Below, in pieces: positions 3,970 to 38,392 of a stretch of DNA of 64,000 nt. The stretch is from an uncultured Gammaproteobacteria bacterium (GTDB lineage Bacteria > Patescibacteriota > Patescibacteriia > SBBC01 > CAIJZX01), in assembly GCA_964383765.1 (NCBI GenBank), contig CAYLHT010000004.1, forward strand, positions 3,539 to 67,538, read 5' to 3'. Every line of letters starts with the position of its first letter. Positions within the stretch are counted from its first letter, which is position 1. The translations under genes and the position numbers were made by a program. Below the pieces are notes generated by a model. The model was not told the DNA's origin and did not search any database. It saw only the letters and a list, made by a program, of their open reading frames with translations.

Positions 3970-4055
3970 TGTCATCTCGAACCCGCTGCGGGTGAGAGAT
4001 CTGCCTTGTGGTACTACAAAGTAGATTTCTCGCCCTTCTCGGGCTCGAAATGACA
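3970..4055. repeat. MITE/REP-like imperfect palindromic element, copy 1 (TGTCAT[C/T]TCGA...GAGA[G/A]ATCT...AGATTTCTCGCCC...GGGCTCGAAATGACA)
   Basis: Shares about 30-nt arms with elements at 16188-16267 and 38312-38392. Each arm contains an internal gccc-N-gggc mini-hairpin. Intergenic, 48 nt upstream of the aspS start. Confidence 0.6.
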
Positions 4056-4060
4056 GAAGG

Positions 4061-4645
4061 TTATTTTAGCTTATTTTGTTGAGTTATTCGGAAAAGCAGT
4101 ACCACCAGTCCCCCACCGAGCAAGTTGAAAAACAAGTCATGGGGCGTGTCATAAATGAACACCACACGATGCGTGCCAAACCACATATCCCCGAGCCACT
4201 CGGTCACTTCATACATCGCACCAATGAACTGGCCCGTCAAAAATCCCAACCAAGTGGCTTGGCCCCACGCGACCTTGAGTTTACCCGTCTTGCGCCAGGC
4301 TTGGTAGAAGTCGATAAAACCACCAGCCACGGCCATCCCTCCGACAGTGTGTGAAATTCGATCCCACCACCAAAAGCCAGCATACAAATGCTGAAAGTTC
4401 CCCAGCGCGTCCAGCCAGACAGCACCAAACGCCAAGAGAATGGTGATCCACGATAACTGTGCGCTACGTTTAGACAGCCAGCGATTAAACCCCAATACTA
4501 ATCCAACCGCGATCAGGTTAGTGACGGCCAGGGCAATTTGGCGTTGGGGTGTGTCATAGCTGGTGAACAACTCTAGTTTCAATAAGCCGACCTGCAGCGC
4601 GATCAGTCCGATCCACAGCCAACGACGAGTTCGAGCAGTCATCAT
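4061..4645 (-). CDS. Hypothetical polytopic membrane protein, translationally coupled to the upstream Nramp gene
   Basis: The ATG at 4645 overlaps the Nramp TGA stop (ATGA). The first 103 codons of the six-frame ORF 4061..4954 overlap the Nramp gene and are rejected. 194 aa, several hydrophobic helices. Confidence 0.5.
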   Translation of the reverse strand: MMTARTRRWLWIGLIALQVGLLKLELFTSYDTPQRQIALAVTNLIAVGLVLGFNRWLSKRSAQLSWITILLAFGAVWLDALGNFQHLYAGFWWWDRISHTVGGMAVAGGFIDFYQAWRKTGKLKVAWGQATWLGFLTGQFIGAMYEVTEWLGDMWFGTHRVVFIYDTPHDLFFNLLGGGLVVLLFRITQQNKLK

Positions 4646-5892
4646 TGGTGAAGAATCAATTGAACAATAAAGATCACGCCGGCGACTGACATCAGCCCCC
4701 AGGCCAGCCAACCGCCGAATTTCACGATCGGTCGAGTCGTGAAGTTGCCGACCACGTCGGCTCGATCGGCTAATCGCAAGATGAACCACAGCGCGATGGG
4801 TGCCAGTAACCCGTTCAATACCCCAGCCGCGATCAGGAAAGCGATCGGCGAAATTCCGGTGGCGGACATAATCGCCCCAATCCAAATCGAAATAATGATC
4901 ACAAAGTAAAACGATGGGGCCTGTTTGAAGTGCTGCGACAGTCCTTCCTTCCATCCAGCGACTTCGGCAGTCGCATAGGCGGCGGAACCGGCCAAGATCG
5001 GCACCGCCAATAAGCCGGTGCCAATGATCCCGATTCCAAATAACCAGAACGTTAAGTTGCCCGCTATCGGTCGCAAGGCTTCAGCCGCTTCTTGAGCAGT
5101 CGCGATGTTGGTGATGCCGGCTTGGTGCAACGTCGCGGCCGTCGTCACAATAATGAAGAACATGATCAGATTCGAAACGATCATGCCGGTAGCGGTGTCG
5201 AGTCGCATCGCTCGGATTAAACGGCTGATGTGCGAAGCTTGACGCGGACCGCGACTTTCATTTTCAACTTCTTCAGAGCTTTGCCAAAAAAATAAATAGG
5301 GTGAAATTGTTGTTCCCAAGATAGCCACAATTATCGCCACCACTCCGGGCTGATGAATCACACTTGGCACCAACGTCCGCCAAGCGACTTCGGCCCAATC
5401 AACTTTAATCACCAGGGCGGCGGCGACATATGTTAGTAATGCAAAGGTCAGCCACTTTAGGACATTCACATACTTGCGGTATGGCACCAGAACTTCCAGT
5501 GAAATCATCAGGCCTCCCAGCAGCGCCACATACAGAATTGTTGGCGCGGGGTGGAGCAGTTTACTGACCGCCGCCATCGCTCCCAAATCAGCACCGATGT
5601 TGATGGTGTTGACGATCAGCAGTAATAAGCTCAACCCGATAGCAACTCGTTTTGAGACATACCGTCGGATCAAGGCCGACAATCCGCGACGCGTCACCAA
5701 GCCTAGTCGGGCCGACATTTCCTGAACCGCCATCATCAGCGGCGTGGTAAAGAGTGCTAGCCAGAGCAACCCATAACCAAATTTCGCACCGGCTTGGGAA
5801 TAAATGATCACGCCCGACGGATCGTCGTCCGAGGCGCCGGTGATCACGCCGGGGCCGATGCTTTTAAAGACGTTGCGCGGTCGGAAGAACAT
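4642..5892 (-). CDS. mntH: Nramp-family divalent metal (Mn2+/Fe2+) transporter
   Basis: N-terminal GPGVITGASDDDPSGVIIYSQAGAKFGY matches the Nramp consensus. 416 aa, polytopic. Confidence 0.75.
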   Translation of the reverse strand: MFFRPRNVFKSIGPGVITGASDDDPSGVIIYSQAGAKFGYGLLWLALFTTPLMMAVQEMSARLGLVTRRGLSALIRRYVSKRVAIGLSLLLLIVNTINIGADLGAMAAVSKLLHPAPTILYVALLGGLMISLEVLVPYRKYVNVLKWLTFALLTYVAAALVIKVDWAEVAWRTLVPSVIHQPGVVAIIVAILGTTISPYLFFWQSSEEVENESRGPRQASHISRLIRAMRLDTATGMIVSNLIMFFIIVTTAATLHQAGITNIATAQEAAEALRPIAGNLTFWLFGIGIIGTGLLAVPILAGSAAYATAEVAGWKEGLSQHFKQAPSFYFVIIISIWIGAIMSATGISPIAFLIAAGVLNGLLAPIALWFILRLADRADVVGNFTTRPIVKFGGWLAWGLMSVAGVIFIVQLILHQ

Positions 5893-5895
5893 ACG

Positions 5896-8388
5896 TTAGG
5901 TCGATTGCGGATCGAATCGCCGGTAAAACCAGTGTTTCAAGAACTCAGTAATCAATAAATCAAAGACGACGATGCCCGCAATCGCCAGCACAATCCGAAA
6001 GGACAGCGGCGTGAAGTGGAAGAAATGGTTGACGGGCAGATAGGGCAGGAGCCACCCAATCGTGACCGTGACCAGGGTGTTCACGAGTAACCAGGCACTC
6101 GGCCGACTCGAGAGGAACGGAATACGCTTGGTGCGGATGACGTAGATCACCAAGACTTGTGAGGCGAGTGACTCAATAAACCAGCCGGTTTGAAACCCCG
6201 CCGCCGACAAGTGGAAGACCCAGAGTAATATGGCGAACGTCACAAAATCGAAAAATGAACTGATCGGACCGAACACCAGCATGAACCGACGGACAAAACG
6301 TAAATCCCAGGCTGTCGGTTTGGTCAAATCATTTTGATCGACCTGGTCAGTCGACAACGCTAATTGCGAGGTATCATATAAGAAATTATTTAAGAGCAAC
6401 TGGGTGGGCAACATGGGCAGGAATGGCATGAAGGCCGACGCCGCGGTCATCGAGAACATATTGCCGAAATTCGCGCTCAAGCCCATTTTGATGTATTTCA
6501 TGGTGTTGTGGAACGTCCGTCGACCCTCCAACACGCCGTCACGAATGGCATTCAGCGAGTGCCGTAGTAAAATAATGTCAGCTGTTTCCTTTGCCACGTC
6601 AACCGCATTATTGACTGAAATCCCAACGTCCGCTGCTTTCAGGGCCGGCGCGTCATTAATGCCATCGCCCAAGAAACCGACCACTTGACCGGCGTGCTGC
6701 AAGGCGGCAATGATCTGCTCTTTTTGCTCGGGGTCGATCCGGGCAAAAATCGAATTCTGCATGACCGCCTGTTGAAATTGAGCTTGATCTAAGCCATGCA
6801 GCTCTTGGCCGGTGATGCTGCCGTGGATCGGCACGTCGATCACCCGACAAATTTTCTCAGTCAACAACAGATTATCGCCGGTCAAAATTTTTATGCCGAT
6901 GCCGAGATCTTCCAAGCGGTCAATCGTTTCTTTGACGCCGGCTTTGGGTGGATCGAGCAGCGCGATGTACCCCAGGAGAATCATGTCGTGCTCGTGATCG
7001 GCTTCAAAGGATGGCTGACGCGATTGGATGATCCGCTGGGCGACGGCCAGGACTCGGTACCCATCCTGACTGAAACTGGTGTAGACCTGTTCGGCTGTTT
7101 GCCGAGCGCTGGCATCGAGTTGCACAACCTGATCACGGCTGGCATATCGCTGGCAGATGGGCACCACTGCTTCCGGAGCGCCTTTGGTGATCAGCCAACG
7201 TTGACCCTCGCGCTCGACCACCACCGACTCCCGACGGCGTTCGAAGTCGAAGGGAATTTCATCAATTTTCACCGCAGTGGCCGTACTCCACTGGCGATAG
7301 TTCCGAATCGCATCATCCAGCGGATTGCTGACGCCGCTGTGGAAGACGCTGCTCAAGCCCGCCGCGGATAAGACCTGTTCATCCTCGACCCCAAAGCAGT
7401 CGGTGTACTTGACCACGCTAATTTTATTTTCGGTCAAGGTGCCGGTCTTATCGGTACACAGAATATTCATCCGGCCAATGTTCTGAATTGCCGGCAAGCG
7501 CTTGACGATCACCGATTGTTTTGACATCCGGACGGCCCCGCGGCTGAGTGAGACGGTTAAGATGACGGGTAGGAGTTCGGGTGTTAACCCAATCGCAATC
7601 GCGATGGCAAAAATCAACGACTCGAGAATGCCGCGGTGCGCGGCCGCATTGAAGAGGAACACTAAGGTCACCATGATGACCGTCACTCGTAACAAGAAGG
7701 TGCTGAATGACCGGATGCCACGATCAAAATCAGTCGTCGGTTCAGATTTGGCCAACCGCTCCGCAATTTTTCCGTAGGCGGTTGAGCGACCGGTGGTGGT
7801 GACTTCCATCAGGCCGGTACCGGTGACCACGCTGGTGCCCATGAAAACCGCTGCCGGATTATTGCGATCGAGCGATTGGCTCGCGGCGTTAGTTGAAGCG
7901 GTCTTCGCAGCAGGCAACGACTCGCCGGTTAAGGCCGATTCATTCACATAGATGTCACGACCTTGGCGAATGAGGCCATCGGCCGGAATAACGTCGCCGG
8001 ACGATAACTGAACCACGTCGCCAGGCACAATCTCTTCCAGTGGGACATCTTGGAACTTTCCATCCCGCTGCACCGTCGCGGTCGTCACAACTTTCGCGAT
8101 TAATGTATTGACCGCTTTGGTTGACCGCGCGGTGTTCGTATAGTCGAGAATCGCCGAGAAACTGACCATCACCACTAAGATGACGGCATTCGTTCGCTCA
8201 CCAACAAAAAAAGAAATGGTCGACGCCACGATGATCACCCACAACAACGGGCTATTGAACGAGCGCAAAAATTCAACGAATGGCCGTAACGCTTGTTTGG
8301 TGACAATCGAATTCGGGCCGTATTGCTGACGTCGTTCGGCGACCACCAGGGTGGTCAGGCCAAAAGGTTGTTGATCCGTCACCATCAA
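5896..8388 (-). CDS. mgtA: P-type ATPase, MgtA-like Mg2+-importing type
   Basis: DKTGTLTEN phosphorylation motif, GDGINDAPALKAADVGISV hinge motif and TGES-like actuator motif. 830 aa. Confidence 0.75.
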   Translation of the reverse strand: MMVTDQQPFGLTTLVVAERRQQYGPNSIVTKQALRPFVEFLRSFNSPLLWVIIVASTISFFVGERTNAVILVVMVSFSAILDYTNTARSTKAVNTLIAKVVTTATVQRDGKFQDVPLEEIVPGDVVQLSSGDVIPADGLIRQGRDIYVNESALTGESLPAAKTASTNAASQSLDRNNPAAVFMGTSVVTGTGLMEVTTTGRSTAYGKIAERLAKSEPTTDFDRGIRSFSTFLLRVTVIMVTLVFLFNAAAHRGILESLIFAIAIAIGLTPELLPVILTVSLSRGAVRMSKQSVIVKRLPAIQNIGRMNILCTDKTGTLTENKISVVKYTDCFGVEDEQVLSAAGLSSVFHSGVSNPLDDAIRNYRQWSTATAVKIDEIPFDFERRRESVVVEREGQRWLITKGAPEAVVPICQRYASRDQVVQLDASARQTAEQVYTSFSQDGYRVLAVAQRIIQSRQPSFEADHEHDMILLGYIALLDPPKAGVKETIDRLEDLGIGIKILTGDNLLLTEKICRVIDVPIHGSITGQELHGLDQAQFQQAVMQNSIFARIDPEQKEQIIAALQHAGQVVGFLGDGINDAPALKAADVGISVNNAVDVAKETADIILLRHSLNAIRDGVLEGRRTFHNTMKYIKMGLSANFGNMFSMTAASAFMPFLPMLPTQLLLNNFLYDTSQLALSTDQVDQNDLTKPTAWDLRFVRRFMLVFGPISSFFDFVTFAILLWVFHLSAAGFQTGWFIESLASQVLVIYVIRTKRIPFLSSRPSAWLLVNTLVTVTIGWLLPYLPVNHFFHFTPLSFRIVLAIAGIVVFDLLITEFLKHWFYRRFDPQST

Positions 8389-8408
8389 AGTATACCAAAA
8401 AATCTCGC

Positions 8409-8693
8409 TTACGGCTTTGGCTCAATATTCAGAGGAGATGGAGGCGTTTCCAAAAAAATTTTCTTTAATTTGTTTGTGTTGCCGCAGTGCAAACACGCTA
8501 ACTGTCGCGAGGAGTGCTTCGTTGAGTTGAGTGCGCCAAATAATCCAGTTTTGCTTGGCTGAAGCAAGCCTCCCACAACTTGGTTTAGGTTCATGTACCG
8601 ATCTGGATTTACCCCATACTCATCTTCGGCAAAACGAGAATACTGTTGACAATTCGGACATTGATAGTATTTCTTTTTCGGGGTTTCCATCAA
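8409..8693 (-). CDS. Zinc-ribbon hypothetical protein
   Basis: CPNC...CLHC pairs of cysteines. 94 aa. Confidence 0.4.
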   Translation of the reverse strand: MMETPKKKYYQCPNCQQYSRFAEDEYGVNPDRYMNLNQVVGGLLQPSKTGLFGALNSTKHSSRQLACLHCGNTNKLKKIFLETPPSPLNIEPKP

Positions 8694-8716
8694 CTTCGGT
8701 ACTATTCGATTCGGTC

Positions 8717-9139
8717 TTAGCCCACAGCCCTTTTTACCAACGCCACAATTTTCTTCTCATCTGCCGAAGTGAGCTTGATCAGTGCAAAAGCCACCGGCCA
8801 CATCTGCCCAGCATCGAGCTTGGCCGCGTCCTGAAAACCAAGGGTCGAATATCGGTATTTAAATTTAGTCGCGTTTTGGAAAAAACACACAACCTTTCCA
8901 TCTTTGTTGGCATACGCTGGCATACCGTACCACGTTTTCGGGGTGAGCGAAGGTGCAGTTTTCATAATCAGTGCGTGGATGCGCTTCGCCAGACTTCGAT
9001 CAGGTTTCGGCATTTTTGAAATTTTCGCCAAGACCGCGCCTTCGCCTTCAGTATTTCCGGAGCGGCGTTCAGCCGCTTCTTCCCGCATGACCTTGAGCTC
9101 GTCGTCGGAAAAGACTTTGGTGGGTTTGGTGGGTGTCAT
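8717..9139 (-). CDS. DUF1801 (YdhG-like) domain protein
   Basis: The central [21 protein letters not shown] segment resembles the YdhG/DUF1801 family. 140 aa. Confidence 0.4.
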
Positions 9140-9154
9140 GCGAGCACTATTGTG

Positions 9155-9883
9155 TTAGTAGGTTGGACTGGAGGCGCCGTGTGCAAAGATAGAGACGAGA
9201 ATCGAAAGCAGGAGAAAGGCGCCCCCGATGCAGAAGATGACAATCCCCCAGATGCCCCACTGTCGCTGGACCTGTTTAAACTGATCGACGCTCTCCCAGC
9301 GGCCGGCTTTCCAGGCCCACTCGTTACCTTTGATCCCTAGGACAATCCACCAAACGTAACTGAGAACTGGAACGAAGCTTAAGAGAGATAACCAAACGCT
9401 ATGTGAGATTCCCCAAATCCAGGTTAAGCCGGCTGCTCCCCAGTTCCAACCCTCGATCTCAGGCGGCACCACCGACGCATCCCCTTTGCCTGACCGTTCG
9501 TCATAGTGACTATCGGGAGCAATGGTTTTTTTATTCAAGAACACGATGCCGAGAGGGACAAAGACAAAGATGCCGATCACCCCGAGGAGCGCCACGAGCC
9601 CGAGAATAAGATTGATAATTTTTATTACTGTCGTGCCGAGCGTTACCGAATCGCCACTCGGATTGGTCGTCCGCGAAATAAAAATGACAATCGCCCAAAT
9701 GAACAGTGTGGCAACCAGGGTCAGGAACGGCAACAGGATAAAAAATATTCCGAGTTTTTTATTTTTGTTCGAGACGACCATCGCAGTATTCTGCGGGGGT
9801 TTTGGAACTTCTGTAGTAGTTGATTTTTTGGTTGGGCTCATGACAATACGATACGACAGCAACCGATCAGTGTAAAGGGCCAC
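9155..9883 (-). CDS. Hypothetical integral membrane protein (Trp-rich C-terminal half). The true start may be the internal Met at 9841
   Basis: Multiple TM helices and WxW-rich segments. No clear SD at either candidate start. Confidence 0.45.
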   Translation of the reverse strand: MALYTDRLLSYRIVMSPTKKSTTTEVPKPPQNTAMVVSNKNKKLGIFFILLPFLTLVATLFIWAIVIFISRTTNPSGDSVTLGTTVIKIINLILGLVALLGVIGIFVFVPLGIVFLNKKTIAPDSHYDERSGKGDASVVPPEIEGWNWGAAGLTWIWGISHSVWLSLLSFVPVLSYVWWIVLGIKGNEWAWKAGRWESVDQFKQVQRQWGIWGIVIFCIGGAFLLLSILVSIFAHGASSPTY

Positions 9884-9989
9884 TTGCCTTTGATGGATCC
9901 CTCTTTAAGACTTGACTTTCCTATTCTTTCAGGTAAGGTCTCGTCGTTAAGCCGACATCGCGCCGTCCAACCCTTTCAAGGAGTATCCC

Positions 9990-10382
9990 ATGGCCATGGA
10001 TTGGAAGCTACGCTCGTTCTGGAACGTCTATCAGCGACTGGCGCCCTTGATTGGACCGGTGCACATCGTCCGGCTCAACCCAGCCGATGGTCGCCAGCCG
10101 GTCATGCTGTGTCAACGCCTCGGCGTTCGGCTCGTCACCCGCCAGGAATACCTGGATGCCGTCTCGTCCGGTCTGACCCACGCTCCCGGATTTCCGATCG
10201 CCGTTGCTGACCTGTTCTACGACAACTGGGGTGATACGATCCGACATGGCTACTTCGTCAACCCCTACCCGAGCCCTCGTCCCGCCTGGGCCGATGAGTA
10301 CTACAATTGGAGGCAACGTCGCGTCAGACGGCCGTTCCATCAGCTCTGGCGTTTCGCCGTCGCTCGGGTGGCCACTGTGTAG
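9990..10382 (+). CDS. Hypothetical protein in a GC-rich, foreign-looking module
   Basis: Upstream TTGACT-16-TAAGGT promoter-like element and an AGGAG SD 7 nt before the ATG. High-GC codon usage. No known domain. Confidence 0.5.
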   Translation: MAMDWKLRSFWNVYQRLAPLIGPVHIVRLNPADGRQPVMLCQRLGVRLVTRQEYLDAVSSGLTHAPGFPIAVADLFYDNWGDTIRHGYFVNPYPSPRPAWADEYYNWRQRRVRRPFHQLWRFAVARVATV

Positions 10383-10450
10383 CCATCAACCACCGCTTGG
10401 TTTCATGACCTGGCGGTGTTTTATTGCTTGCACCTTTCGTTCCGTTGAAA

Positions 10451-11431
10451 CTAGTCTACGTGGATTCGTTTACGATAATCAGCAATCATGGGAATCCGAC
10501 TGACATACCCTGGATACATATCGACATAATGCCCGCGCAGGTCTTCTGGCTTCTGCCCGCCATACCGACCGGCCAGCCGCTCGTACTCGAAGGCCGGCGT
10601 TGTGAGATCGCCGCCCCGCACCCATTTTTCGCGTAATCCGGTGGATCCAATCGGTCCATGCGCCTCGATCGCTCCGATCCAGATCCGTCCCTCGCCATCG
10701 CGGCAAAAAATGTAGGTAAATTTTTCATCGTTCGAAGGCAGAGCCTCCATCTCGACCGGTCCGTATAAGGTTGTCGACTGACGCCAACGCTGTCCGTGGG
10801 CACGCATATTTGGCATCTGATTGAGATCGGAGAGCTTGACCTTCTCCGGTTCAAGTTTTCCACCCACCCGAAAGTATTCTCCGGTTAACTCAATCGCTCG
10901 ACGGTCGACCTGATTCCGGTAGGTTTGGGATCGATCAATCGCGTGCGCCGTTCCAGCTAAAACTAAGTCTGGATGTTCAAGTTCCAGGGCTGATCGTCCG
11001 CTGATGTCTGCCAACCCAGGCTGCACTAACGTAGGAACAGTGACGCTTTCTTCACTGTACCCTTTCGAGTACCACTCCACCTTTCCATCGTGTGAGGTGT
11101 AGGTAGGTAAATAGCGCCACAGCCCGTGAGAGTTACTTAAGTAATAGCTGCGAGCGACGACGTTCCCTTGGTGTTCAATATACGCCACGACCGCCTTCCG
11201 ACCTTCATGCAATGCGTATGGATCAGACGACAGCCAACGAACGCCCTCTGACTCGGCCAATTGATGGCGCGGTTGTAAGGATAATTCGCGCAACGTGGCC
11301 TGGTCGAGCTCAACCCCATAAAACGGATCGCCGTGGATTTCGGTTCGTTTAAGAGTCTCAGCTTGCTCCGCCAGCGAAAGTTCTTGAACGGCCTCGGGTG
11401 GCAGTGATGGTTGGGGTTCACGTTCGGACAT
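10451..11431 (-). CDS. Hypothetical protein in the same GC-rich module, convergent with the previous gene
   Basis: 326-aa ORF with high GC third positions. No recognised domain. Confidence 0.5.
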   Translation of the reverse strand: MSEREPQPSLPPEAVQELSLAEQAETLKRTEIHGDPFYGVELDQATLRELSLQPRHQLAESEGVRWLSSDPYALHEGRKAVVAYIEHQGNVVARSYYLSNSHGLWRYLPTYTSHDGKVEWYSKGYSEESVTVPTLVQPGLADISGRSALELEHPDLVLAGTAHAIDRSQTYRNQVDRRAIELTGEYFRVGGKLEPEKVKLSDLNQMPNMRAHGQRWRQSTTLYGPVEMEALPSNDEKFTYIFCRDGEGRIWIGAIEAHGPIGSTGLREKWVRGGDLTTPAFEYERLAGRYGGQKPEDLRGHYVDMYPGYVSRIPMIADYRKRIHVD

Positions 11432-11549
11432 GGATCTGAGTATACACCAATTCAGAATACTACGAGCTGATCAAAGCATCAGAATGGATCCTGCCGATAA
11501 CCGTTGACTATTTGAACGCTTTTAGTTATTCTTGCTTACTGAAAAGTAT

Positions 11550-11621
11550 GGGTCCCTAACTCAATGGTAGAGTATCAGCCTTTTAAGCTGAGAGTTCTGG
11601 GTTCGAATCCCAGGGGACCCA
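11550..11621 (+). tRNA. tRNA-Lys (anticodon UUU)
   Basis: Cloverleaf: acceptor GGGTCCC/GGGACCC, D-arm ACTC/GAGT, anticodon stem TCAGC/GCTGA with loop CTTTTAA, T-arm CTGGG-TTCGAAT-CCCAG, discriminator A. CCA is not encoded. Confidence 0.85.
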
Positions 11622-11784
11622 CTAACGTCGGCGAAACCGACATTAATAATTTACTGCGTAGTCCGGGTACGGTCACAAAACTGTGCCCCTGGGACGAGAA
11701 GGGTTGAAGTGAGCTAGTCGAGCCAGGCTCGACGCAGCGAACGATCGGCGAGTTGCCGGTGGCAAGTCGCCGCAACCCAGGACA

Positions 11785-11806
11785 GAGTCCCAGGGGGGGC
11801 CACTAA
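11785..11806 (+). repeat. Partial direct repeat of the tRNA-Lys 3' end (gagtcccagggggggccactaa versus gaatcccaggggacccactaa); possible degenerate att remnant
   Basis: About 19/22 identity to tRNA positions 11600-11626, 165 nt downstream of the tRNA. Several small hairpins lie between them. Confidence 0.25.
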
Positions 11807-11859
11807 TTGAGACAACTTTTTAAGAAATCGCCGAATCTCGGCGAAGGTCTGCATAAACA

Positions 11860-12429
11860 ATGAGTTCGAAAAAGACTCAGGGCCAGGCGCCAGAACGGAG
11901 AATAATAAAGCTAAGAGCTGAGATCGAATCGATTGAGTCTTTCTTTTATGGTGCCAAAGATGGCGATAATGATGATGCTTTCTTCATGTTGAAGATAAAA
12001 CGAGACAATGTTATCAGAGGCATGATATTGGAGTTACATTTATCAATCGAAGATCTACTCAATGGCGTCATCAAAAGCCACATTCTAAGTACAAAGACTG
12101 GGAAAGAGCTGGTTGCTTCTTCAGCGGTTGACGAGTTGCTTGTTGGTGAGAGGGCGATGGGTTTTAAGCAGAAAATAATCTATCTGAAAGCTGCATCATT
12201 GATTCGGCCTCAACTTTTCAATGACTTAGATACATTAAACCGACTAAGGAATAAAGCAGGGCACAATTGGACACTAAATCGCGTTATTAGAAAAAAGATA
12301 AAGCGGAATAAGAGGAAAAGGCCATTGCTTGAATATAAGGGTCGTAATTTGTATCAACATGAAGTCATCAAGGAATTTATTGCCCACTACGGAAGGATTT
12401 ATTATCGCTTGTGGCTGAAATTCGCTTGA
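11860..12429 (+). CDS. HEPN-like domain protein (possible Abi/toxin-type RNase) in an AT-rich segment next to tRNA-Lys
   Basis: 189 aa. C-terminal RLRNKAGHN fits the HEPN Rx4-6H motif. AT-rich codon usage contrasts with the neighbours. Confidence 0.4.
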   Translation: MSSKKTQGQAPERRIIKLRAEIESIESFFYGAKDGDNDDAFFMLKIKRDNVIRGMILELHLSIEDLLNGVIKSHILSTKTGKELVASSAVDELLVGERAMGFKQKIIYLKAASLIRPQLFNDLDTLNRLRNKAGHNWTLNRVIRKKIKRNKRKRPLLEYKGRNLYQHEVIKEFIAHYGRIYYRLWLKFA

Positions 12430-14818: not shown

Positions 14819-16186
14819 ATGGCCGACGCGATGACCGAACTGAAAACCCCGCCCCAAGCCTTGGAAGCTGAGCAGGCGGCGTTGGGGTCGTTACTCATCG
14901 ATAAAGACGCAATCGTCCGGATTGCCGACTTGGTCAGTCCGGAAGACTTTTACAGCGATAAGCACCGTTTGGTGTTTGACGCCATGTTAACGCTCTATCA
15001 AAAACACGAACCGATTGACATCGTTTCGCTCTCAACGGTCCTGCAAGAACGCGGTCAATTAGACACTATCGGCGGACGGAGTTTCCTCGTGTCGTTGTCC
15101 AACGCGGTCCCAACCGCCGCCAATGTCATTCAATACGCAAAAATAATCCAGAAGAAATCGACCTTACGCCGGTTGTTGTCGGCGGCCACCAGCATGGTTC
15201 AACTCGGTCACCAGGAAACCGAAGATGTCAGCACGCTCCTCGATCAAGCCGAGCAATCACTGTTCAGCGTTTCCCAGCGCTACCTCAAGCAAAACTTCAT
15301 CAACATTCGTGACATTCTCGATGAAGCCTTTGACCGAATTGATAAACTCCATCACGAGGGCGGCGGGTTGCGCGGCATCCCAACTGGCTTCACCCAGCTT
15401 GACAACATTCTCGGCGGATTACAAAAATCCGATTTGATTGTGTTGGCGGCGCGGCCGAGCGTTGGGAAAACCTCGTTAGCGCTTGATATTGCCCGCCACG
15501 TTGGCATTACCAGCAAGCTACCGGTCGGTGTTTTCAGCTTAGAAATGTCGAAAGAACAACTGGTCGATCGCTTGTTGTCATCGCAAGCTGACGTTGAGCT
15601 TTGGAAAATGCGCACTGGCCGCTTGAAAGATGACGAAGACTTTCAACGGATAGGTCATGCCATGGGTTTGCTGGCCGAAGCGCCGATCTACATCGATGAC
15701 AGCGCCACCTCGAATATTCTGGAAATCCGCACCAAGGCCCGACGATTACAAGCTGAGCATAAAGGCTTAGGACTAATCGTGATCGATTACCTCCAGTTGA
15801 TGGAAAGCCGTTCCGGAGAAAACCGAACCCAGGAAATCTCGGAAATTACGCGCGGTTTAAAATCGATTGCGCGCGAGCTGAATGTACCAGTCTTAGCACT
15901 TTCACAGTTGTCCCGTGCAGTTGAAGCCGAACGCCCACCAATTCCAAAACTTGCCCACCTTCGCGAATCCGGTTCGATTGAGCAGGATGCGGACGTGGTG
16001 CTCTTCATTTACCGCCCGGCGGTCTACGATCCAGACATCGAAGCCGAGAAAAAGAATTTGGCGGAAATCTTTGTGGCCAAGCACCGCAACGGCCCGACTG
16101 GTAGAGTCAGACTCTCATTCATCGAACGCCGCGCCTCCTTTGACAATCGTGAGGAACGGATGGATGAGTCGCAGTTTGGATCGTAG
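14819..16186 (+). CDS. dnaB: Replicative DNA helicase DnaB
   Basis: Walker A ARPSVGKTS, LPVGVFSLEMSKEQL, and a RecA-like C-terminal domain. 455 aa. Confidence 0.85.
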   Translation: MADAMTELKTPPQALEAEQAALGSLLIDKDAIVRIADLVSPEDFYSDKHRLVFDAMLTLYQKHEPIDIVSLSTVLQERGQLDTIGGRSFLVSLSNAVPTAANVIQYAKIIQKKSTLRRLLSAATSMVQLGHQETEDVSTLLDQAEQSLFSVSQRYLKQNFINIRDILDEAFDRIDKLHHEGGGLRGIPTGFTQLDNILGGLQKSDLIVLAARPSVGKTSLALDIARHVGITSKLPVGVFSLEMSKEQLVDRLLSSQADVELWKMRTGRLKDDEDFQRIGHAMGLLAEAPIYIDDSATSNILEIRTKARRLQAEHKGLGLIVIDYLQLMESRSGENRTQEISEITRGLKSIARELNVPVLALSQLSRAVEAERPPIPKLAHLRESGSIEQDADVVLFIYRPAVYDPDIEAEKKNLAEIFVAKHRNGPTGRVRLSFIERRASFDNREERMDESQFGS

Positions 16187-16187: not shown

Positions 16188-16267
16188 TGTCATTTCGAGC
16201 GAAGCGAGAAATCTACTTTGTGCAGTTCGTCCGGCTAGATTTCTCGCCCGTTGGGCTCGAAATGACA
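16188..16267. repeat. MITE/REP-like imperfect palindromic element, copy 2
   Basis: ttgtcatttcgagcgaagcgagaaatcta ... tagatttctcgcccgttgggctcgaaatgaca. The right arm is nearly identical to copy 1. Sits between the dnaB stop and the ybaB start. Confidence 0.6.
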
Positions 16268-30646: not shown

Positions 30647-30649
30647 AGA

Positions 30650-31114
30650 TTATTTAGCAGGGTCGATGGTTTTGCCTTCAGGTAAGGTCACCACGGCTTT
30701 GCGACGGCCAGCTGTGCGGCCGACTGATCGGCCGTAGCGCACCCATTTGCCTGGCAGATTCACGATGTTGACGCTGACTGGTCGAACGCCGTAGACATGT
30801 TGGACCGCGTGGCGAACGTCAACTTTGGTGGCTTGGTCGTGGATCATGAATGAATATTGCGATTGAGCTTGTTGGCGCGTGGTCTTTTCGGTCACGACTG
30901 GACGTAGGAGTACGCGGTTGGCTTGATGCGTTGATTCGCGAACTTGGGCTGATTTAGTAGTTTCAGTTTTAGCCACAGGTTTTTTGTCATCTTTCCCAGC
31001 CGGAACATTCGCGAAAGATTTTTGCTTGGCATCGTCAGCACTCACCTTGCCACCTTTCGGTTTGCTCGGCGTTTGTTTGCCTTTACGGCTGGTGAAGCGA
31101 TCGAAGAAGCCCAT
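30650..31114 (-). CDS. rplW: 50S ribosomal protein L23 with a roughly 55-aa basic N-terminal extension
   Basis: Core RVLLRPVVTEKTTR...KVDVRHAVQHVYGV. The N-terminal extension is K/G-rich. Confidence 0.8.
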   Translation of the reverse strand: MGFFDRFTSRKGKQTPSKPKGGKVSADDAKQKSFANVPAGKDDKKPVAKTETTKSAQVRESTHQANRVLLRPVVTEKTTRQQAQSQYSFMIHDQATKVDVRHAVQHVYGVRPVSVNIVNLPGKWVRYGRSVGRTAGRRKAVVTLPEGKTIDPAK

Positions 31115-31115
31115 A

Positions 31116-31745
31116 TTACTTGGCGTAGGTTTTGGAGATCACTGGGAGAGCGTCTTGCAAAACAACTAGTTGCTGGTGACGCAAGACGTCGTAGACATTC
31201 AGACTGTCGGCTCGAATGAAACTGACACCAGGAATGTTACGCCCAGATTTGATCAGAGCGTGGTTAGTCGCCGGCATCACAATCAAGTTGGTCTTGTGGT
31301 GCGGGACGGCGTTCAAGACTTTGTTGAATTCTTTGGTCTTGGGCTGGGTCAATTCGATTTTATCGACGACGGACATCCGGTCGCTCTGGGCTTTGTCACT
31401 CAGGGTCATCAGTAAGGCTTGGCGCTTGGATTGGACGTTCATCTTAATTTCAAAATTGCGATTCTTGCGCGGACCGAAGATGACGCCGCCGCCTTTCCAC
31501 TGTGGAGAGCGAATCGAACCGTGCCGGGCACGACCAGTACCTTTTTGGCGCCATGGTTTCTTACCGCCGCCACGGACTTCAGCCTTGGTCTTGGTATGGG
31601 CCAACACCGGTCGGCGACCAGCCAGAATCGTGGTGACGGCTTGCTCAATCAATCCGCGATTCGGTTTTAAGCCGAAAACTTTGGCGTCGAGCTCAACGTT
31701 GCCAATCGCTTGCCCGGTTTGATTATAAAGTTTCGCGGACGACAT
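31116..31745 (-). CDS. rplD: 50S ribosomal protein L4
   Basis: GGGKKPWRQKGTGRARHGSIRSPQWKGGG signature. Confidence 0.85.
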   Translation of the reverse strand: MSSAKLYNQTGQAIGNVELDAKVFGLKPNRGLIEQAVTTILAGRRPVLAHTKTKAEVRGGGKKPWRQKGTGRARHGSIRSPQWKGGGVIFGPRKNRNFEIKMNVQSKRQALLMTLSDKAQSDRMSVVDKIELTQPKTKEFNKVLNAVPHHKTNLIVMPATNHALIKSGRNIPGVSFIRADSLNVYDVLRHQQLVVLQDALPVISKTYAK

Positions 31746-31746
31746 A

Positions 31747-32352
31747 TTACTTCGAGATGATTGTCACGAAACCGTTAAAGGGGCCAGGAACGGCACCTTT
31801 CAACCACAGTTCATGTCCTTCGGCGTTGACTTTGACCACTTCCAGATTCTTGACCGTGACTTTCGCGTTCCCCATCCGACCGGCCATCCGCGTGCCTTTC
31901 ATGACGTGCTGCGGGAAGGTGGCGCCGATCGAACCGGGAGCGCGCAAGTTATCTTTGTGACCATGCGAGGCCGGACCGCCTTTGAAATGGTGGCGCTTGA
32001 CGACGCCGGCGTAGCCGCGGCCTTTTGAGGTGCCCGTGACTTGCACAACGTCACCCGGTTGGAATTGGGTGACGTCAATCTTGTCGCCTTTACTCTTGCC
32101 GTCCGCATTGCGAATTTCACGCACGCGCGTAAAGCTGCCGAGCTCTTTCCATTCTTCCCGCTGAGCCTTGGCCAGCCGCGAGGCTTTGCGCTTGCCTTGA
32201 CCCAGTTGTAGGGCGGTGTAGCCGCCCGCGTCGGCCGTCCGGACGCCGGTCACGACGTTCGGTTCAGCTTTGACCACGGTCACCGGTACGACGCGCCCGT
32301 CGTCGGCGAAGACCTGGGTCATCTGCTTTTTTTGGCCGAGGATGAATTTCAC
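31747..32352 (-). CDS. rplC: 50S ribosomal protein L3
   Basis: GQKKQMTQVFADDGRVVPVTVV..., and FQPGDVVQVTGTSKGRGYAGVVKRHHF. Confidence 0.85.
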   Translation of the reverse strand: MKFILGQKKQMTQVFADDGRVVPVTVVKAEPNVVTGVRTADAGGYTALQLGQGKRKASRLAKAQREEWKELGSFTRVREIRNADGKSKGDKIDVTQFQPGDVVQVTGTSKGRGYAGVVKRHHFKGGPASHGHKDNLRAPGSIGATFPQHVMKGTRMAGRMGNAKVTVKNLEVVKVNAEGHELWLKGAVPGPFNGFVTIISK

Positions 32353-32402
32353 AAATGAGAAGTTAGAGATTGGAAGTTAGGGGTTGGAGGTGGGAAATTG
32401 GA

Positions 32403-32442
32403 GAAGGTACGAAACACCGCTTGGGCCGTCATTAGGCACCGC
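32403..32442 (-). promoter_or_regulatory. Strong 11-bp stem-loop (aacaccgcttg / caagcggtgtt) in the unusually long (about 190 nt) rpsJ-rplC spacer, followed on the mRNA strand by a pyrimidine-rich tract
   Basis: Perfect 11-bp stem with an 18-nt loop. The spacer is noncoding, unlike the tight S10-L3 junction typical of bacteria. Confidence 0.35.
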
Positions 32443-32540
32443 AAGCGGTGTTCATGATGGCGACCGTTGTCCGGGGATTACGACAGCGAGTACTGGTCTT
32501 GTCATCCCTGGAACTAATCGTCGGATGGATTGTGTAATGA

Positions 32541-32888
32541 TTAGGACTTGATCTCGATATCGACGCCGGCTGGCAAGGTCAGTGAGGTCAGTGCGTCCAC
32601 CGTTTTGGGCGTCGGGTCGACGATGTCGACTAAGCGCTTGTGAGTTCGCATTTCGTATTGCTCACGTGAATTCTTGTGAGCAAACGAGCTGCGAATGACG
32701 GTGTACTTGCTGCGCTCGGTTGGGAGCGGAACTGGACCTTTGATACTGGCGCCAGTTCTCAGGGCCGTTTCAATAATCGTTTTGGTTGATTGATCGATGA
32801 TCTTGTGATCATAGGCCCGAATCTTGATGCGGAGGCGCTGGTGCTGTTCTTCCTCGGTTGAGGTTTTCGGTTGCGGTGCGTCGGGCAT
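32541..32888 (-). CDS. rpsJ: 30S ribosomal protein S10 (possibly with a short N-terminal extension)
   Basis: [23 protein letters not shown]...KGPVPLPTE matches the S10 core. Confidence 0.85.
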
Positions 32889-32915
32889 GGGAAGGAGCGG
32901 CTGAGTTATGAGAGA

Positions 32916-34103
<1,188 letters not shown>

Positions 34104-34163
34104 TGGGGCTCAATCCTACGGGGTTAAACAATTGCTTGGAAACTAAACGAAAACGCAGGTCGG

Positions 34164-34192
34164 AGTATATCAGGATGGCCGCTAAATGGCAA
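34164..34192 (-). promoter_or_regulatory. Sigma70-like promoter for tuf (-35 TTGCCA, 17-nt spacer, -10 TATACT on the minus strand)
   Basis: Read on the minus strand: TTGCCA-tttagcggccatcctga-TATACT, about 60 nt upstream of the tuf ATG. Confidence 0.35.
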
Positions 34193-34210
34193 GGTAGACA
34201 TGATTCGAAC

Positions 34211-34253
34211 CTAATCTTAGAAAATGGAAATTGATTTTTTTACCTAAGATTAG
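34211..34253. repeat. 10-bp perfect inverted repeat (ctaatcttag ... ctaagattag) with a 23-nt AT-rich spacer, just upstream of the tuf promoter
   Basis: Exact reverse-complement arms at 34211-34220 and 34244-34253. Confidence 0.4.
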
Positions 34254-34704
34254 CCAAAAAGTAGCATTTTCAAGAACATAATTAGGGGCCCAATTGTCTT
34301 TCGACGTTCGGGCCCCATGCTGCGGACGACTCTTCGAGAAACCTCGACAGTTTTGGCTGGTGTGACCCAACCGGACCGTACGTGATTTTGCCTAGTGGCA
34401 ACTGTTTCCGACTGATCGGATAGGCGTTTGGCTTTTGAGGGCCTCAGACCTTTCACCCGTTCGGCCGGATCAGCCTTGCTTGTTTCCACCTCATGGTGGC
34501 CGGCGTTAGGTCTCCCCAACACTGACCTTCCCTGTGCGGGTCGCCCGTCCCCTTGCGGGATCGTGGCCTCTCGCCAGATGGATTTAGCTACGAAGGACTT
34601 CCGCTGCGTGAAAAGAAGGATACTGTGGCCATCAAATCACCGCAACCCCGCCTATCAACGACCTACCCCCAGGTTTTTCCCCGGAGTTGTTCACAGGTTA
34701 TTCA

Positions 34705-34734
34705 GAAAAAAGCCGCTGAAATGGATCGGCGGCT
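34705..34734 (-). terminator. Rho-independent terminator downstream of the GNAT gene
   Basis: Minus-strand AGCCGC-cgatccatttc-AGCGGCT followed by TTTTTTCTG. Confidence 0.6.
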
Positions 34735-34746
34735 AGAGACAAGAGT

Positions 34747-35322
34747 TTAGAGTTTTCCAGTACGACGGTACTTTTTCCACTTGGGCTCCCACCACTCGCG
34801 GAAAATACACAGGAGGATTTCGTCGTAGTAGCGCCCGCGCCGATAGAACTGCTTTCGGCGGCGACCCTCAACTCGATACCCGCACTTCTGGTTGTAAGCC
34901 GCGCTCCGCCCGTTGAAGGCGAAGCAGGCGGAACAGATTTTGCGGAGATTGAGTGTGTTGAAGGCGTAGCCGAGCAACGCCATCTTCGCGTCTTGGCCGA
35001 AGCCTTTCCCCCAGTAGGCTTTATCGCCAAAGGCCGCGCCGGTCGTCGCCACTCGACTGACCCAGTCGATCCGATGCAAGCCCATCAATCCAATCGGGGT
35101 GCCGTCTTTCGTTTCAACCATCAACACAACATCGTTGGGACGCTTGTCTAGTCCTTCTACCCAGGCGATTTCTGCCCCTTCGGTGAACGGCATAACGGCT
35201 GTCAGAAATAGTCGTACCTCTGGATCATTCATCCACCGTACCAACAGCGGCACATCCGTCTTATTGACCGGACGCAACACAGTCTTTCGTCCACGTAGGA
35301 ACACTACTCGATTCTTTTCCAT
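34747..35322 (-). CDS. GNAT-family N-acetyltransferase (RimJ/RimL-like), inserted between fusA and tuf
   Basis: GNAT fold with motif A around WGKGFGQDAKMALLGYAF. Start chosen at MEKNRVVFLRG (ATG 35322..35320), which has an AAGGAG SD 7 nt upstream. The longer six-frame ORF (to 35481) is rejected. Confidence 0.65.
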   Translation of the reverse strand: MEKNRVVFLRGRKTVLRPVNKTDVPLLVRWMNDPEVRLFLTAVMPFTEGAEIAWVEGLDKRPNDVVLMVETKDGTPIGLMGLHRIDWVSRVATTGAAFGDKAYWGKGFGQDAKMALLGYAFNTLNLRKICSACFAFNGRSAAYNQKCGYRVEGRRRKQFYRRGRYYDEILLCIFREWWEPKWKKYRRTGKL

Positions 35323-35569
35323 CTCCATTCTCCTTTTGACAAGGTACACATCCAAAACACCCGGTCGCAGGTTGCGCCGGGGCGGGTAGTGAACGTTATG
35401 AAAATGCTTTACTTTCGCATCCAATCCACCACCAGCCCGGGCGCAACGGTCGCGCAGCCCGAGTGTTTGATATCCAGCCAATATTGGCGGGTAGTGGTGA
35501 ACATAGTTTCAGCACCTTACTAAATCATCAGACCAAAGTCAAGAATGGCTGAAAAAATCTGCCTGGGTT

Positions 35570-36217
35570 TTACTGTAAGTGAGAAACGTCATTCAAATGA
35601 ATAACGCTTGCCCGACCGGTCGGATGAACATCCAGAATAGTCACGCTCGTATTGCCGAGCAGAAAATTTTGCCCGCCGATGTCAGCTCCGTCTTCGACCG
35701 CCGCTTCGAGTAACGTGAATAAAAGCACGCCATGACTGACCACCACGAGTGTTTCATCTAAATGTTTTGCCTTGGCGATATTGAACCACTTGATTGCTCG
35801 GGTCTTCACGTCATCAATCGATTCGCCTCCTGGAATCCTTTTCTTACGATCGATTTTCTTTTGCGTATTACCAATATCATCGTCTGGATGAATCGGCTTC
35901 CCGGTCATCTCGCCGGCGTTCCGTTCGCGGAGCAGGAGATCATAGACCAATTTCACCTTGGGATGATGAGACACAATTTCTTTGGCGGTAAAGTTCGCGC
36001 GCTGGAGATCGCTCGAATACACAATGTCAATTTTCTGTTTTGCCAAACGTTCTCCTACTCGTCTAGCTTGTTGTCGCCCGTTGTCATTCAACGGCACATC
36101 GCTCTGGCCAATGTGCGTATTGGTTCGATTGTGATCCGTTTCGCCGTGCCGAACGAGAATGAGTTTCATAGTGCTATCATAACACACCACCGATTCTACA
36201 ACCGATGGTGCGCTCAA
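35570..36217 (-). CDS. Histidine phosphatase superfamily protein (phosphoglycerate mutase-like)
   Basis: N-terminal LILVRHGETDHN catalytic RHG motif. 215 aa. Confidence 0.7.
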   Translation of the reverse strand: MSAPSVVESVVCYDSTMKLILVRHGETDHNRTNTHIGQSDVPLNDNGRQQARRVGERLAKQKIDIVYSSDLQRANFTAKEIVSHHPKVKLVYDLLLRERNAGEMTGKPIHPDDDIGNTQKKIDRKKRIPGGESIDDVKTRAIKWFNIAKAKHLDETLVVVSHGVLLFTLLEAAVEDGADIGGQNFLLGNTSVTILDVHPTGRASVIHLNDVSHLQ

Positions 36218-36225
36218 GTAGAATA

Positions 36226-38301
36226 CTATTTCGCCTTTTCGCCAACTATCTCCTGTGCCACGTTCCGCGGCACTTCGGCGTAGTGCGAGAATTCCATGGA
36301 GTAGGACGCGCGACCTTGGGTCATCGAGCGCAAACTCGTAGCGTAGCCGAACATTTCGCCCAGCGGCACTTCCGCGTCAATCACTTTCGCTTGACCGCGG
36401 TCAGTCATTTCTTTGATGGTCGCGCGTTTGGCGTTCAAGTCGCCGATCACGTCACCCATGAACTGTTCCGGCGTAATGGCTTCGACTTTCATGATTGGTT
36501 CGAGCAGGACTGGCTTGGCTTTACGGCAGGCTTCCTTGAAGCCCATCGAGCCGGCGATTTTGAAGGCGGCTTCGGATGAGTCAACGTCGTGGTAACTGCC
36601 ATCATAGACCGCGGCTTTGATGTCGACCATCGGATAGCCGGCCACCACGCCGCTATCCATGGCTTCCTTAATCCCTTTGTTGATTGGCGTGATGAACTCT
36701 TTCGGAATTGAGCCGCCTTTGACTTCGTCGATGAACTCATAACCTTTGCCGGCTTCATTCGGTTCCACGCGGATCCAGCAGTGACCGTACTGCCCGCGAC
36801 CACCGGACTGTTTGATGTACTTGCCTTCACCTTCGGCAGTTTGGGTGATGGTTTCACGGTAGGCGACGCGCGGCTTACCGACGTTTGCTTCAACTTTGAA
36901 TTCGCGTTTCATCCGGTCGACAATGATGTCGAGGTGGAGTTCGCCCATGCCGGAAATAATCGTCTGCGCGGTTTCTTCATCACTACGAACCCGGAAGGTC
37001 GGATCTTCTTCTGCCAAGCGGGACAAGGCAATGCCCATCTTCTCTTGATCCTGTTTGGTCTTGGGTTCGATCGCGATATCAATCACCGGTTCAGGGAAGA
37101 CGATGTTCTCGAGTTTGATCGGATGATCAGGATCGCAGAGTGAGTCACCGGTGACCGTGCCTTTCAAACCGACAGCCGCCGCGATTTCTCCGGCATAGAC
37201 ATGATCAACATCTTCGCGGGAATTGGCGTGTAGACGCACAATCCGGCCGATGCGCTCTCTGTCCCCGGTGGTGGTGTTGAGCACATAGCTCCCGGCCGCT
37301 AGATTACCAGCATAGACACGGAAGAAGGCGAGTTTGCCGACGAATGGATCGGTAGCAATCTTAAAAGCCAGGGCGGTGAACGGTGCATCGTCACTGGTTG
37401 GACGTTCAATCTCGGCTTCCGTTTTCGGATCCGTGCCTTTGACCGGCGGAATGTCGAGCGGTGAGGGCAGGAAATCATTGACCGCATCGAGTAAAAATTG
37501 CACGCCTTTGTTCTTCAAGGCTGAGCCGCACAGGATTGGAACCAGAGTATTGCTGATGACAGCTTTGCGGAGAGCAGCTTTTAATTCCGGCACGCCCGGC
37601 TCTGTTCCACCCAGATACTGTTCAAGTAACTTGTCGTCGGTTTCACAAATGGCTTCCACGAGTTTGTGGCGGTATTCCTCAACTTTGTCTTTCATGTCGG
37701 CCGGGACGTCAACCTGCTCGAACTCTTTTCCCATTTCGTCTTTGTAGATTTCGGCTTTGCGGTCGAACAAATCGATAATGCCTTGGAAGGTGTCGGCCGC
37801 GCCAATTGGCAACAGGGTAGGGTAGGCTCGCGTCGTCAATCGGTCGTGAATTGATTTCACTTCATTGTAAAAATCCGCACCCATCCGGTCCATTTTGTTG
37901 ATGAAACAAATCCGCGGCACGTTGTACTTTTCCGCTTGGTGCCAAACTGTTTCGGATTGCGGTTCAACGCCGGCGACACCATCGAAGACAACGACGCCGC
38001 CATCGAGAACACGAAGTGAGCGTTGGACTTCCACGGTAAAGTCAATGTGCCCCGGGGTGTCGATCAGGTTAATCCGGTGATCTTTCCAGAAACAAGTCGT
38101 GGCGGCAGCAGTGATAGTAATCCCACGTTCTTTTTCCTGCTCCATCCAGTCCATTTCAGCTGCGCCTTCGTGGACTTCACCAATTTTGTGCTTCTTGCCA
38201 GTGTAAACCAAAATCCGCTCGGGGTCCGTGGTTTTTCCAGCATTGATGTGGGCGTTGATTCCGATGTTCCGAGTTTGTTCGAGAGAGTATTCGCGGGGCA
38301 T
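36226..38301 (-). CDS. fusA: Elongation factor G
   Basis: AHINAGKTT and [22 protein letters not shown]-domain motifs. 691 aa. Confidence 0.9.
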
Positions 38302-38311
38302 AGGGGTTGAA

Positions 38312-38392
38312 TGTCATTTCGACGAGCCTACGAGGAGAAATCTATGTTGTGGAATTCGCAATACAGATTTCTCGCTGTTGCTCGAAATGACA
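38312..38392. repeat. MITE/REP-like imperfect palindromic element, copy 3
   Basis: atgtcatttcgacgagcctacgaggagaaatcta ... cagatttctcgctgttgctcgaaatgaca. Begins 10 nt upstream of the fusA start codon. Confidence 0.55.

Follow-up and report, generated by a model that had tools for sequence, protein, structure and literature searches.

TGTC-tagged inverted hairpin pairs in a Candidatus Kerfeldbacteria genome, a probable sequence variant of the REP hairpins linked to Ssn-type GIY-YIG nucleases

Background

What are three closely similar palindromes that stand in the gaps upstream of aspS, ybaB and fusA, and by what kind of system might they have come there? The palindromes lie in a 64,000-nt stretch of contig CAYLHT010000004.1 (assembly GCA_964383765.1, positions 3,539 to 67,538 of the forward strand, deposited under the name of an uncultured Gammaproteobacteria bacterium), which is called the window below and was covered in full by the copy search and the pattern scans. 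A sequence-only reading had described them as a family of transposable elements of the miniature inverted-repeat kind (MITEs) or of repetitive extragenic palindromes (REPs), of a kind rarely described in reduced genomes. They are read here, with a probability of about 0.75, as inverted dimers, tags outermost, of a TGTC-tagged REP hairpin that belongs to the CGTC/TGTC superfamily and is a sequence variant of the SRM hairpins, recognised as single-stranded DNA (ssDNA) by Ssn-type GIY-YIG proteins. The kind of element is already known; the sequence variant, which has a G·A loop within its stem, and the host phylum are new.

The CGTC-tagged REP superfamily was defined with the families CGTC-1 to CGTC-4 (Di Nocera et al., BMC Genomics 2013; PMC3733652). 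Its members have a CGTC or often a TGTC tag (CCTC being allowed), a stem of 8-9 bp that starts with A-T and T-A pairs, and a short tail; they are mostly arranged as inverted dimers with spacers of 20-100 nt, downstream of genes and between co-directional or convergent open reading frames (ORFs), and no transposase belongs to them. Five phyla were covered, including dRS3 of Neisseria, RPE-4 and RPE-6 of Rickettsia and repeats of Wolbachia, and hairpins with more than one stem mismatch were pruned from the survey unless they were dimer partners (PMC3733652). A protein partner was reported later in SsnA, a 94-aa single-domain GIY-YIG protein; the hairpin named NTS (CGTCATTCCCGCGMAVGCGGGAATCYRG) and related SRM hairpins flank ssn genes (Chenal et al., Nat Commun 2025; PMC11893778). 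SsnA binds the hairpin only as ssDNA and in one orientation, does not bind RNA, and cuts a few nt upstream of the tag; cutting depends critically on GTC, and binding on the C that follows the palindrome. In N. meningitidis, transformation with DNA that contains the NTS is reduced by the protein; the layout NTS-ssnA-NTS is like that of an insertion sequence, and the motif flanks 71% of the small single-domain GIY-YIG genes (PMC11893778). With the Rickettsia and Wolbachia families in print since 2013 and the protein partner since 2025, the claim of rarity in reduced genomes did not stand.

Three inverted dimers in the window

Three-way alignment recovered the palindromes at the positions and with the architecture first proposed for them (Table 1). 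Invariant outer blocks (TGTCAT(T/C)TCGA ... TCGAAATGACA) and invariant inner blocks (GAGA(A/G)ATCT ... AGATTTCTC) were separated by variable mini-hairpins and a variable spacer of ~22-24 nt. Between copies 1 and 2 the right arms, said to be nearly identical, were found to differ in the small loop only (TTCTC versus GTT). The 13-mer GCTCGAAATGACA, allowing up to 2 mismatches, had 6 matches in the window, 4 of them exact, and all coincided with the six arm ends; neither this search nor a scan with the generalised arm gave a fourth copy in the 64 kb. All six arms have retained the tag, the two halves of the stem and the 3' C. Copy 1 combines a C/G-compensated left arm (ATCTC/GAGAT), whose DNA fold shows two 5-bp stems, lower and upper, parted by a 2x2 GA loop, with a right arm of the T/A type. 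The insert of copy 2 arm A is the canonical 7-mer with a GAA triloop, and that of copy 3 arm A could form a second tandem G·A. The pentamer TTGTG stands at the same spacer position in 3/3 window copies and in 5/129 copies elsewhere; apart from it, the window copies are no closer to one another than to copies from other phyla.

Each copy was strictly intergenic and lay within a co-directional gene pair, beside the genes that had been named. Copy 1 begins 5 nt past the stop codon of a membrane-protein ORF and ends 49 nt upstream of the aspS ATG; copy 2 lies 1 nt past the dnaB stop and 1-23 nt before the ybaB start; copy 3 is separated by 7 nt from the stop codon of a 290-aa ORF on its upstream side and by 10 nt from the fusA ATG on the other. 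The remark that fusA lacks a Shine-Dalgarno sequence was upheld, as no such sequence was found in these 10 nt (TTCAACCCCT). Pfam searches confirmed the neighbouring genes as aspS (2481-3920, -), an Nramp gene, dnaB (14819-16186), ybaB, recR and fusA (36226-38301, -). At copy 1, the outer end of the element (ATGACA), a 17-nt spacer and TG-n-TATAAT together make up a sigma-70-like promoter (11/12) that faces aspS (3947-3975, -), and this end of the copy may supply the -35 box of the promoter-like site.

Table 1. Coordinates of the three inverted dimers and their six arms in the window
Feature	Position	Strand	Sequence	Context or support
Copy 1, inverted dimer, 86 nt	3970..4055			Between membrane-protein ORF stop (4061-4063, -) and aspS start (3920, -)
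Copy 1 arm A	3970..4002	+	TGTC ATCTC GA ACCCGCTGCGGGT GA GAGAT CT	Exact match to generalised arm
Copy 1 arm B	4023..4055	-	TGTC ATTTC GA GCCCGAGAAGGGC GA GAAAT CT	Generalised-arm match and DNA fold
Copy 2, inverted dimer, 80 nt	16188..16267			After dnaB stop (16184-16186), upstream of ybaB (ATG 16269 or 16291)
Copy 2 arm A	16188..16214	+	TGTC ATTTC GA GCGAAGC GA GAAAT CT	Generalised-arm match and DNA fold
Copy 2 arm B	16237..16267	-	TGTC ATTTC GA GCCCAACGGGC GA GAAAT CT	Generalised-arm match and DNA fold
Copy 3, inverted dimer, 81 nt	38312..38392			Between 290-aa ORF (38400-39272, -) and fusA ATG (38301, -)
Copy 3 arm A	38312..38343	+	TGTC ATTTC GA CGAG-CCTA-CGAG GA GAAAT CT	Generalised-arm match
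Copy 3 arm B	38365..38392	-	TGTC ATTTC GA GCAACAGC GA GAAAT CT	Generalised-arm match and DNA fold

The arm as the conserved unit

The hairpin unit is 27-33 nt long and reads, from its 5' end, (T)GTC, ATYTC, GA, a small stem-loop, GA, GARAT and C(T); hairpins of this variant are written TGTCATTTCGA in shorthand. Covariation was followed in 136 unique dimers with 268 arms. The outer T or C was compensated by the inner A or G of the same arm in 261/268 arms, and arm types were mixed in 25 of the 34 dimers that hold at least one C-type arm, copy 1 among them. Because compensation within the arm is kept while arm types often mix, pairing is conserved within arms and not between them, and the conserved unit is the arm (ATYTC with GARAT) rather than the long hairpin. 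The mini-hairpin that had been noticed in each arm is the key structural point of the element.

The upper stem-loop is variable, mostly N-C-GNA-G-N'. The insert between GA and GA was a 7-mer in 118/268 arms. Covariation is seen at the closing pair of this 7-mer (C-G 68, G-C 24, A-T 18), above which stand a C-G pair and a GNA loop. A second tandem G·A could form in longer inserts, of which CGAG-N3/4-CGAG is an example. Further stem triplets (TCC, CCC, CCT and TCT) were fully compensated, and ATC, GTC, GCT and ATT stem types were present in loci selected for a GIY-YIG gene (see below). Among DNA mini-hairpin motifs, C-GNA-G triloops and tandem sheared G·A pairs are classic ones of unusual stability. 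Folded as RNA, each whole element gave one strong, long hairpin on either strand (-32 to -49 kcal/mol, z -5.5 to -8.8).

Singlets, dimers and tandem arrays of arms were all found. Locus L083 (loci are given by L numbers where they need to be told apart) carries tandem dimer arrays at 8-nt spacing (2244-4019), which resemble the bacterial interspersed mosaic elements (BIMEs), and L188 carries long arrays that alternate two arm types beside a GIY-YIG gene.

Distribution and genomic behaviour of the family

Scans of IMG/VR and of a collection of species-representative genomes with the pattern TGTCATYTCGA-N45-75-TCGARATGACA gave matches in 8 viral contigs and at more than 119 genome loci (a lower bound). 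The architecture thus recurs beyond the window, and the similarity is far above chance. Among the matches listed were Bacteroidota isolates (Pontibacter, Mucilaginibacter, Flavobacterium), Chloroflexota, Desulfobacterota, Proteobacteria, Nitrospira (Nitrospirota), Ignavibacteria, a Bifidobacterium, a metagenome-assembled genome (MAG) of Saccharibacteria and two contigs of a Bathyarchaeota MAG, with the inner blocks the same in nearly all matches listed. The family spans many phyla. The Bathyarchaeota contigs hold typical dimers (L054 3206-3288; L069 1184-1255), which represent either a true archaeal occurrence or contamination in binning. Dimers also stood in contigs classed as viral in IMG/VR (L002-L007), four of which have a common ORF of ~140 aa, and two neighbouring ORFs matched Phage_Mu_Gp37.

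Copies were intergenic in 110 of 120 classifiable cases (63 between co-directional, 29 between convergent and 18 between divergent genes), and they lay nearer to the upstream stop than to the downstream start. Neighbouring genes were unrelated housekeeping genes, no protein family recurring in more than 9 of 127 loci by ORF clustering, and there was no conserved flank around the copies. The sole small recurrent neighbour was a GIY-YIG ORF of ~95 aa, adjoining the repeats in L020, L083 and L104 and also present in L056. No target-site duplication beyond chance was detected in 134 copies (flanking matches of 0 nt in 98, 1 nt in 24 and 2 nt in 11). The 25 Pfam families met most often in 150 neighbour genes included no transposase family, none recurred in the ORF clustering of the 127 loci, and no transposase-derived terminal repeats were found. 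Of the proposed description as MITE or REP-like, then, the REP-like part stood and the MITE part fell, for want of duplications in these 134 copies and of transposase terminal repeats or neighbours. Literature searches with the raw element sequence returned primers only, and a search for GIY-YIG together with REP or YhbQ returned nothing.

Association with small GIY-YIG genes

The association was also taken in reverse, in 80 metagenome loci picked solely because they hold a relative of the ~95-aa GIY-YIG gene. At least one exact generalised arm was present in 63/80 of these loci, within 300 nt of the gene in 61/80 and on both sides of it in 47/80. Arm density was 5.05/kb up to 300 nt from the gene, 0.72/kb at 301-1000 nt and 0.19/kb beyond 1 kb, a 27-fold enrichment near the gene. 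GA/GA stood at stem positions 6-7 in 306/343 arms of these loci, the observed count being ~95x that in a Markov-resampled control, and GTC was preceded by T in 81% of the 343.

The canonical NTS pattern was found in at least 120 viral contigs (L212-L331), six of which carry GIY-YIG ORFs flanked by GTCATTCCCGCGAAAGCGGGAATC. The variant-linked GIY-YIG proteins were 40-44% identical to these ORFs over their full length (E 1e-24 to 1e-28). Arms of the variant therefore cluster to either side of small GIY-YIG genes, and these genes are homologues of the NTS-flanked ones. PF01541 was the sole Pfam match of the variant-linked proteins and UPF0213 BH0048 their match in the PDB; NCBIfam, PADLOC and PDB gave no name for them more specific than UPF0213-like.

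Host lineage and empty sites

By its DnaB and EF-G, the window belongs to the Patescibacteria, among Candidatus Kerfeldbacteria. It was compared with loci of relatives (L128-L131 and L332-L336) whose DnaB or EF-G is 86-90% identical, and in these loci no arms were found. At the fusA junction, the distance from the stop codon (TAA) of the conserved upstream gene, whose product has 286-300 aa, to the ATG is 4 nt in L332 and 6 nt in L335 and L336, of which the last two encode the same EF-G protein on two contigs, so that the three contigs stand for two relatives; the called gap before fusA is 26 nt in L333, a more rearranged relative. The corresponding junction of the window measures 7 + 81 + 10 = 98 nt. 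Because the orthologous fusA junctions of the relatives are empty, copy 3 is an insertion at the fusA site in the window's Kerfeldbacteria lineage. Operon function does not depend on the elements, given that only 4-6 nt part these genes in close relatives.

The dnaB-ybaB spacer could be compared with L128, the one directly syntenic relative (DnaB 90% identical), and the TGTC element is absent there. In its place L128 has a different palindrome of ~70 nt (GTCACTTCCCCC...GGGGGGAAGTTAC; spacer 4792-4914), and this spacer seems to attract palindromes.

Comparison with published repeats

With the CGTC-tagged REPs the window elements and their family have in common the tag (TGTC in 6/6 window arms), the short tail, the arrangement mostly as inverted dimers, the intergenic position downstream of ORFs and the want of a flanking transposase. 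The stem begins and ends AT...AT in all arms and has 9 positions, of which positions 6-7 are G·A/A·G and not Watson-Crick. Patescibacteria are not among the five phyla of that survey, and G·A hairpins, with their two mismatches, may be under-represented in it because its pruning dropped those with more than one stem mismatch.

The likeness to SRM, NTS and dRS3 extends to the parts on which SsnA acts: a hairpin beginning with AT is directly preceded on its 5' side by a (C/T)GTC tag, and the palindrome is directly followed by a conserved C, so that all six window arms read GTC-AT...AT-C. As with SRM and NTS, copies are intergenic and number tens to hundreds, and at the level of the family the motif stands on both sides of small single-domain GIY-YIG genes. 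The variant differs from NTS in the 2x2 G·A/A·G internal loop at stem positions 6-7, where NTS has Watson-Crick pairs, in its lower stem (ATTTC/GAAAT here, ATTCC/GGAAT in NTS) and in the varying length of its upper stem-loop. A further difference from SRM and NTS is the host, here a patescibacterial (Kerfeldbacteria) genome, with no ssn gene in the window.

Several results weigh against reading the elements as SRM variants served by an Ssn-type nuclease. The published SRM search sequence, HGTCWYN(0-2)YYVSBRHN(0-5)WNVSBRGN(0-2)RNCYNB (PMC11893778), matched 0/6 window arms and 0/272 arms in all, in an implementation that does match the canonical NTS. No GIY-YIG or ssn gene was found in the 64-kb window, nor in ~135 kb of relatives' loci, apart from an unrelated KSGSG-type GIY-YIG in L129. 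The whole dimer energetically favours one long hairpin. Isolated arms, folded as DNA with nearest-neighbour parameters, are weakly stable (-1.5 to -7.2 kcal/mol) and, in 3/6 window arms, have no significant z-score; while 5/6 fold as drawn, the minimum-energy DNA fold of copy 3 arm A lacks the proposed hairpin.

The KSGSG-type ORF of L129 (~6924-7330, -) is small and directly follows a tRNA gene whose 3' end is duplicated behind the ORF, an arrangement that looks like integration into the tRNA gene; no TGTC hairpins were found near it.

Alternative explanations

The design of the elements, two inverted hairpins round a spacer that also occur as singlets, doublets and clusters, is that of the REPINs (Bertels and Rainey 2011, PMC3116915) and of the REPs and BIMEs of E. 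coli. Under this explanation a REP doublet would be mobilised by an HUH (Y1) REP-associated tyrosine transposase (RAYT) encoded elsewhere in the genome. The lack of target-site duplications, the intergenic position and a partner nuclease gene flanked by repeats are likewise common to both, and RAYT genes, being single-copy, might easily be missed in 8-kb loci. The pairing of tag and enzyme is different, with GTAG and a Y1 transposase there and TGTC and a linked GIY-YIG nuclease gene here. Neither the 25 commonest Pfam families in 150 neighbour genes nor the recurrent ORFs of 127 loci included a tyrosine transposase, whereas the GIY-YIG gene is a strong and specific neighbour, and the tyrosine transposase genes of CGTC-positive species are never flanked by CGTC repeats (PMC3733652), so that mobilisation by a RAYT is quite improbable. 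Still less credit is given to a MITE that descends from a DDE transposon whose ends are TGT...ACA and that is moved in trans by an insertion sequence. The terminal inverted repeats do begin 5'-TGTCA, like those of several DDE elements, and the size of 80-90 nt would suit; against this, the 134 copies showed no target-site duplication, single arms exist alone, the two arms of a copy often differ in type while compensation within each is kept, and no transposase gene recurs nearby. This origin is considered very improbable.

A function mainly in RNA is rated as unlikely. As with E. coli REPs, intercistronic hairpins would shield the upstream mRNA from 3' exonucleases, or would attenuate or occlude translation of aspS, ybaB or fusA. 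The window copies stand 1-7 nt past a stop codon in co-directional gene pairs, copies in other genomes are also nearer to the upstream stop, the RNA hairpin is strong on either strand, and the fusA ATG is only 10 nt from a hairpin foot. Covariation, however, favours the arm over the long hairpin, the GNA triloops and tandem G·A pairs are motifs of DNA mini-hairpins, SsnA showed no RNA binding (PMC11893778), close relatives leave 4-6 nt at the fusA junction, and no Rfam family was matched. An effect on RNA is compatible with an Ssn-recognised hairpin as its side effect. Two narrower candidates were rejected. An intrinsic terminator was set aside because none of the copies is followed by a T-run when read in the direction of transcription, and copy 1 does not overlap with a terminator-like site. 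A known conserved leader RNA, which had been named as the finding that would undo the proposed repeat family, does not apply, with no family match in Rfam even at permissive thresholds (tRNAs alone at the gathering threshold; weak generic miRNA-hairpin matches at E up to 10). The RAYT-driven REPIN, the DDE-type MITE, the leader RNA and the terminator each fail at least one defining test.

Proposed role of the hairpins

On the reading of the elements as TGTC-tagged REP dimers of the SRM type, their most likely molecular role would be that of ssDNA recognition hairpins for an Ssn-type GIY-YIG nuclease. As no ssn gene lies in the window, both the cognate nuclease and its action in this organism are presumed. 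The ssDNA states in which the hairpins could form would be incoming transforming DNA, the lagging-strand template and rolling-circle intermediates, and in each of them a dimer would offer one sense hairpin per strand, at the 5' side of that strand. The cognate Ssn protein would bind the hairpin and the C at its 3' side and would cut outside the element but close to it, a few nt 5' of the GTC tag; the cut would fragment or restrict the ssDNA and might also drive the spread of the repeat. The three copies are probably transcribed, because they are intercistronic in co-directional gene pairs, and in mRNA an element would form one long hairpin, which might secondarily affect how stable the mRNA is or how the downstream gene is translated. 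An effect on the expression of fusA, aspS or ybaB is possible for the same reason, all three copies being intercistronic.

A more far-reaching proposal, rated as unlikely, is that the G·A-loop hairpin and its own clade of ~95-aa GIY-YIG proteins form a distinct, horizontally spreading Ssn/SRM subsystem that SRM searches have missed and that invaded the Patescibacteria recently, with the insertions beside dnaB, fusA and aspS, as against the empty fusA site and the element-free dnaB-ybaB spacer of close relatives, as traces of an active mobile element driven by the GIY-YIG protein.

Other features of the window

The ORF upstream of copy 3 encodes a conserved protein of 275-300 aa without a Pfam domain, which lies between rpsG and fusA in the window (38400-39272, -) and in the relatives' loci L332 (9136-9996), L335 (9092-9994) and L336 (1030-1932); an extra gene within the str operon of this Kerfeldbacteria clade is unusual. 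At ~48300-52100 the window holds a GC-rich island (59-63% GC, against ~52% elsewhere) with a gene for a 590-aa HATPase_c_3 protein (49045-50817, +), several ORFs without a Pfam or PADLOC match, and long ORFs on both strands. The island is probably foreign DNA.

Conclusions

The repeat superfamily and its nuclease partner have already been published, and the element itself is no discovery. The variant, with its tandem G·A loop, ATTTC stem and TGTC tag, escapes the SRM pattern yet is abundant across phyla and tightly linked to Ssn-like GIY-YIG genes, so that the number of Ssn/SRM systems counted to date is probably too low. It also offers a new pair of enzyme and hairpin specificity for the uses as ssDNA tools that have been proposed for Ssn. 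Were the distinct subsystem real, it would imply a mode of transposition by nuclease and hairpin that has not yet been demonstrated, and it would act as a check on the uptake of ssDNA by organisms that are thought to rely on DNA they scavenge. The family extends to the Patescibacteria with their small genomes, where the clean contrast between occupied and empty fusA sites would amount to a dated insertion event and could help to explain how such repeats spread.

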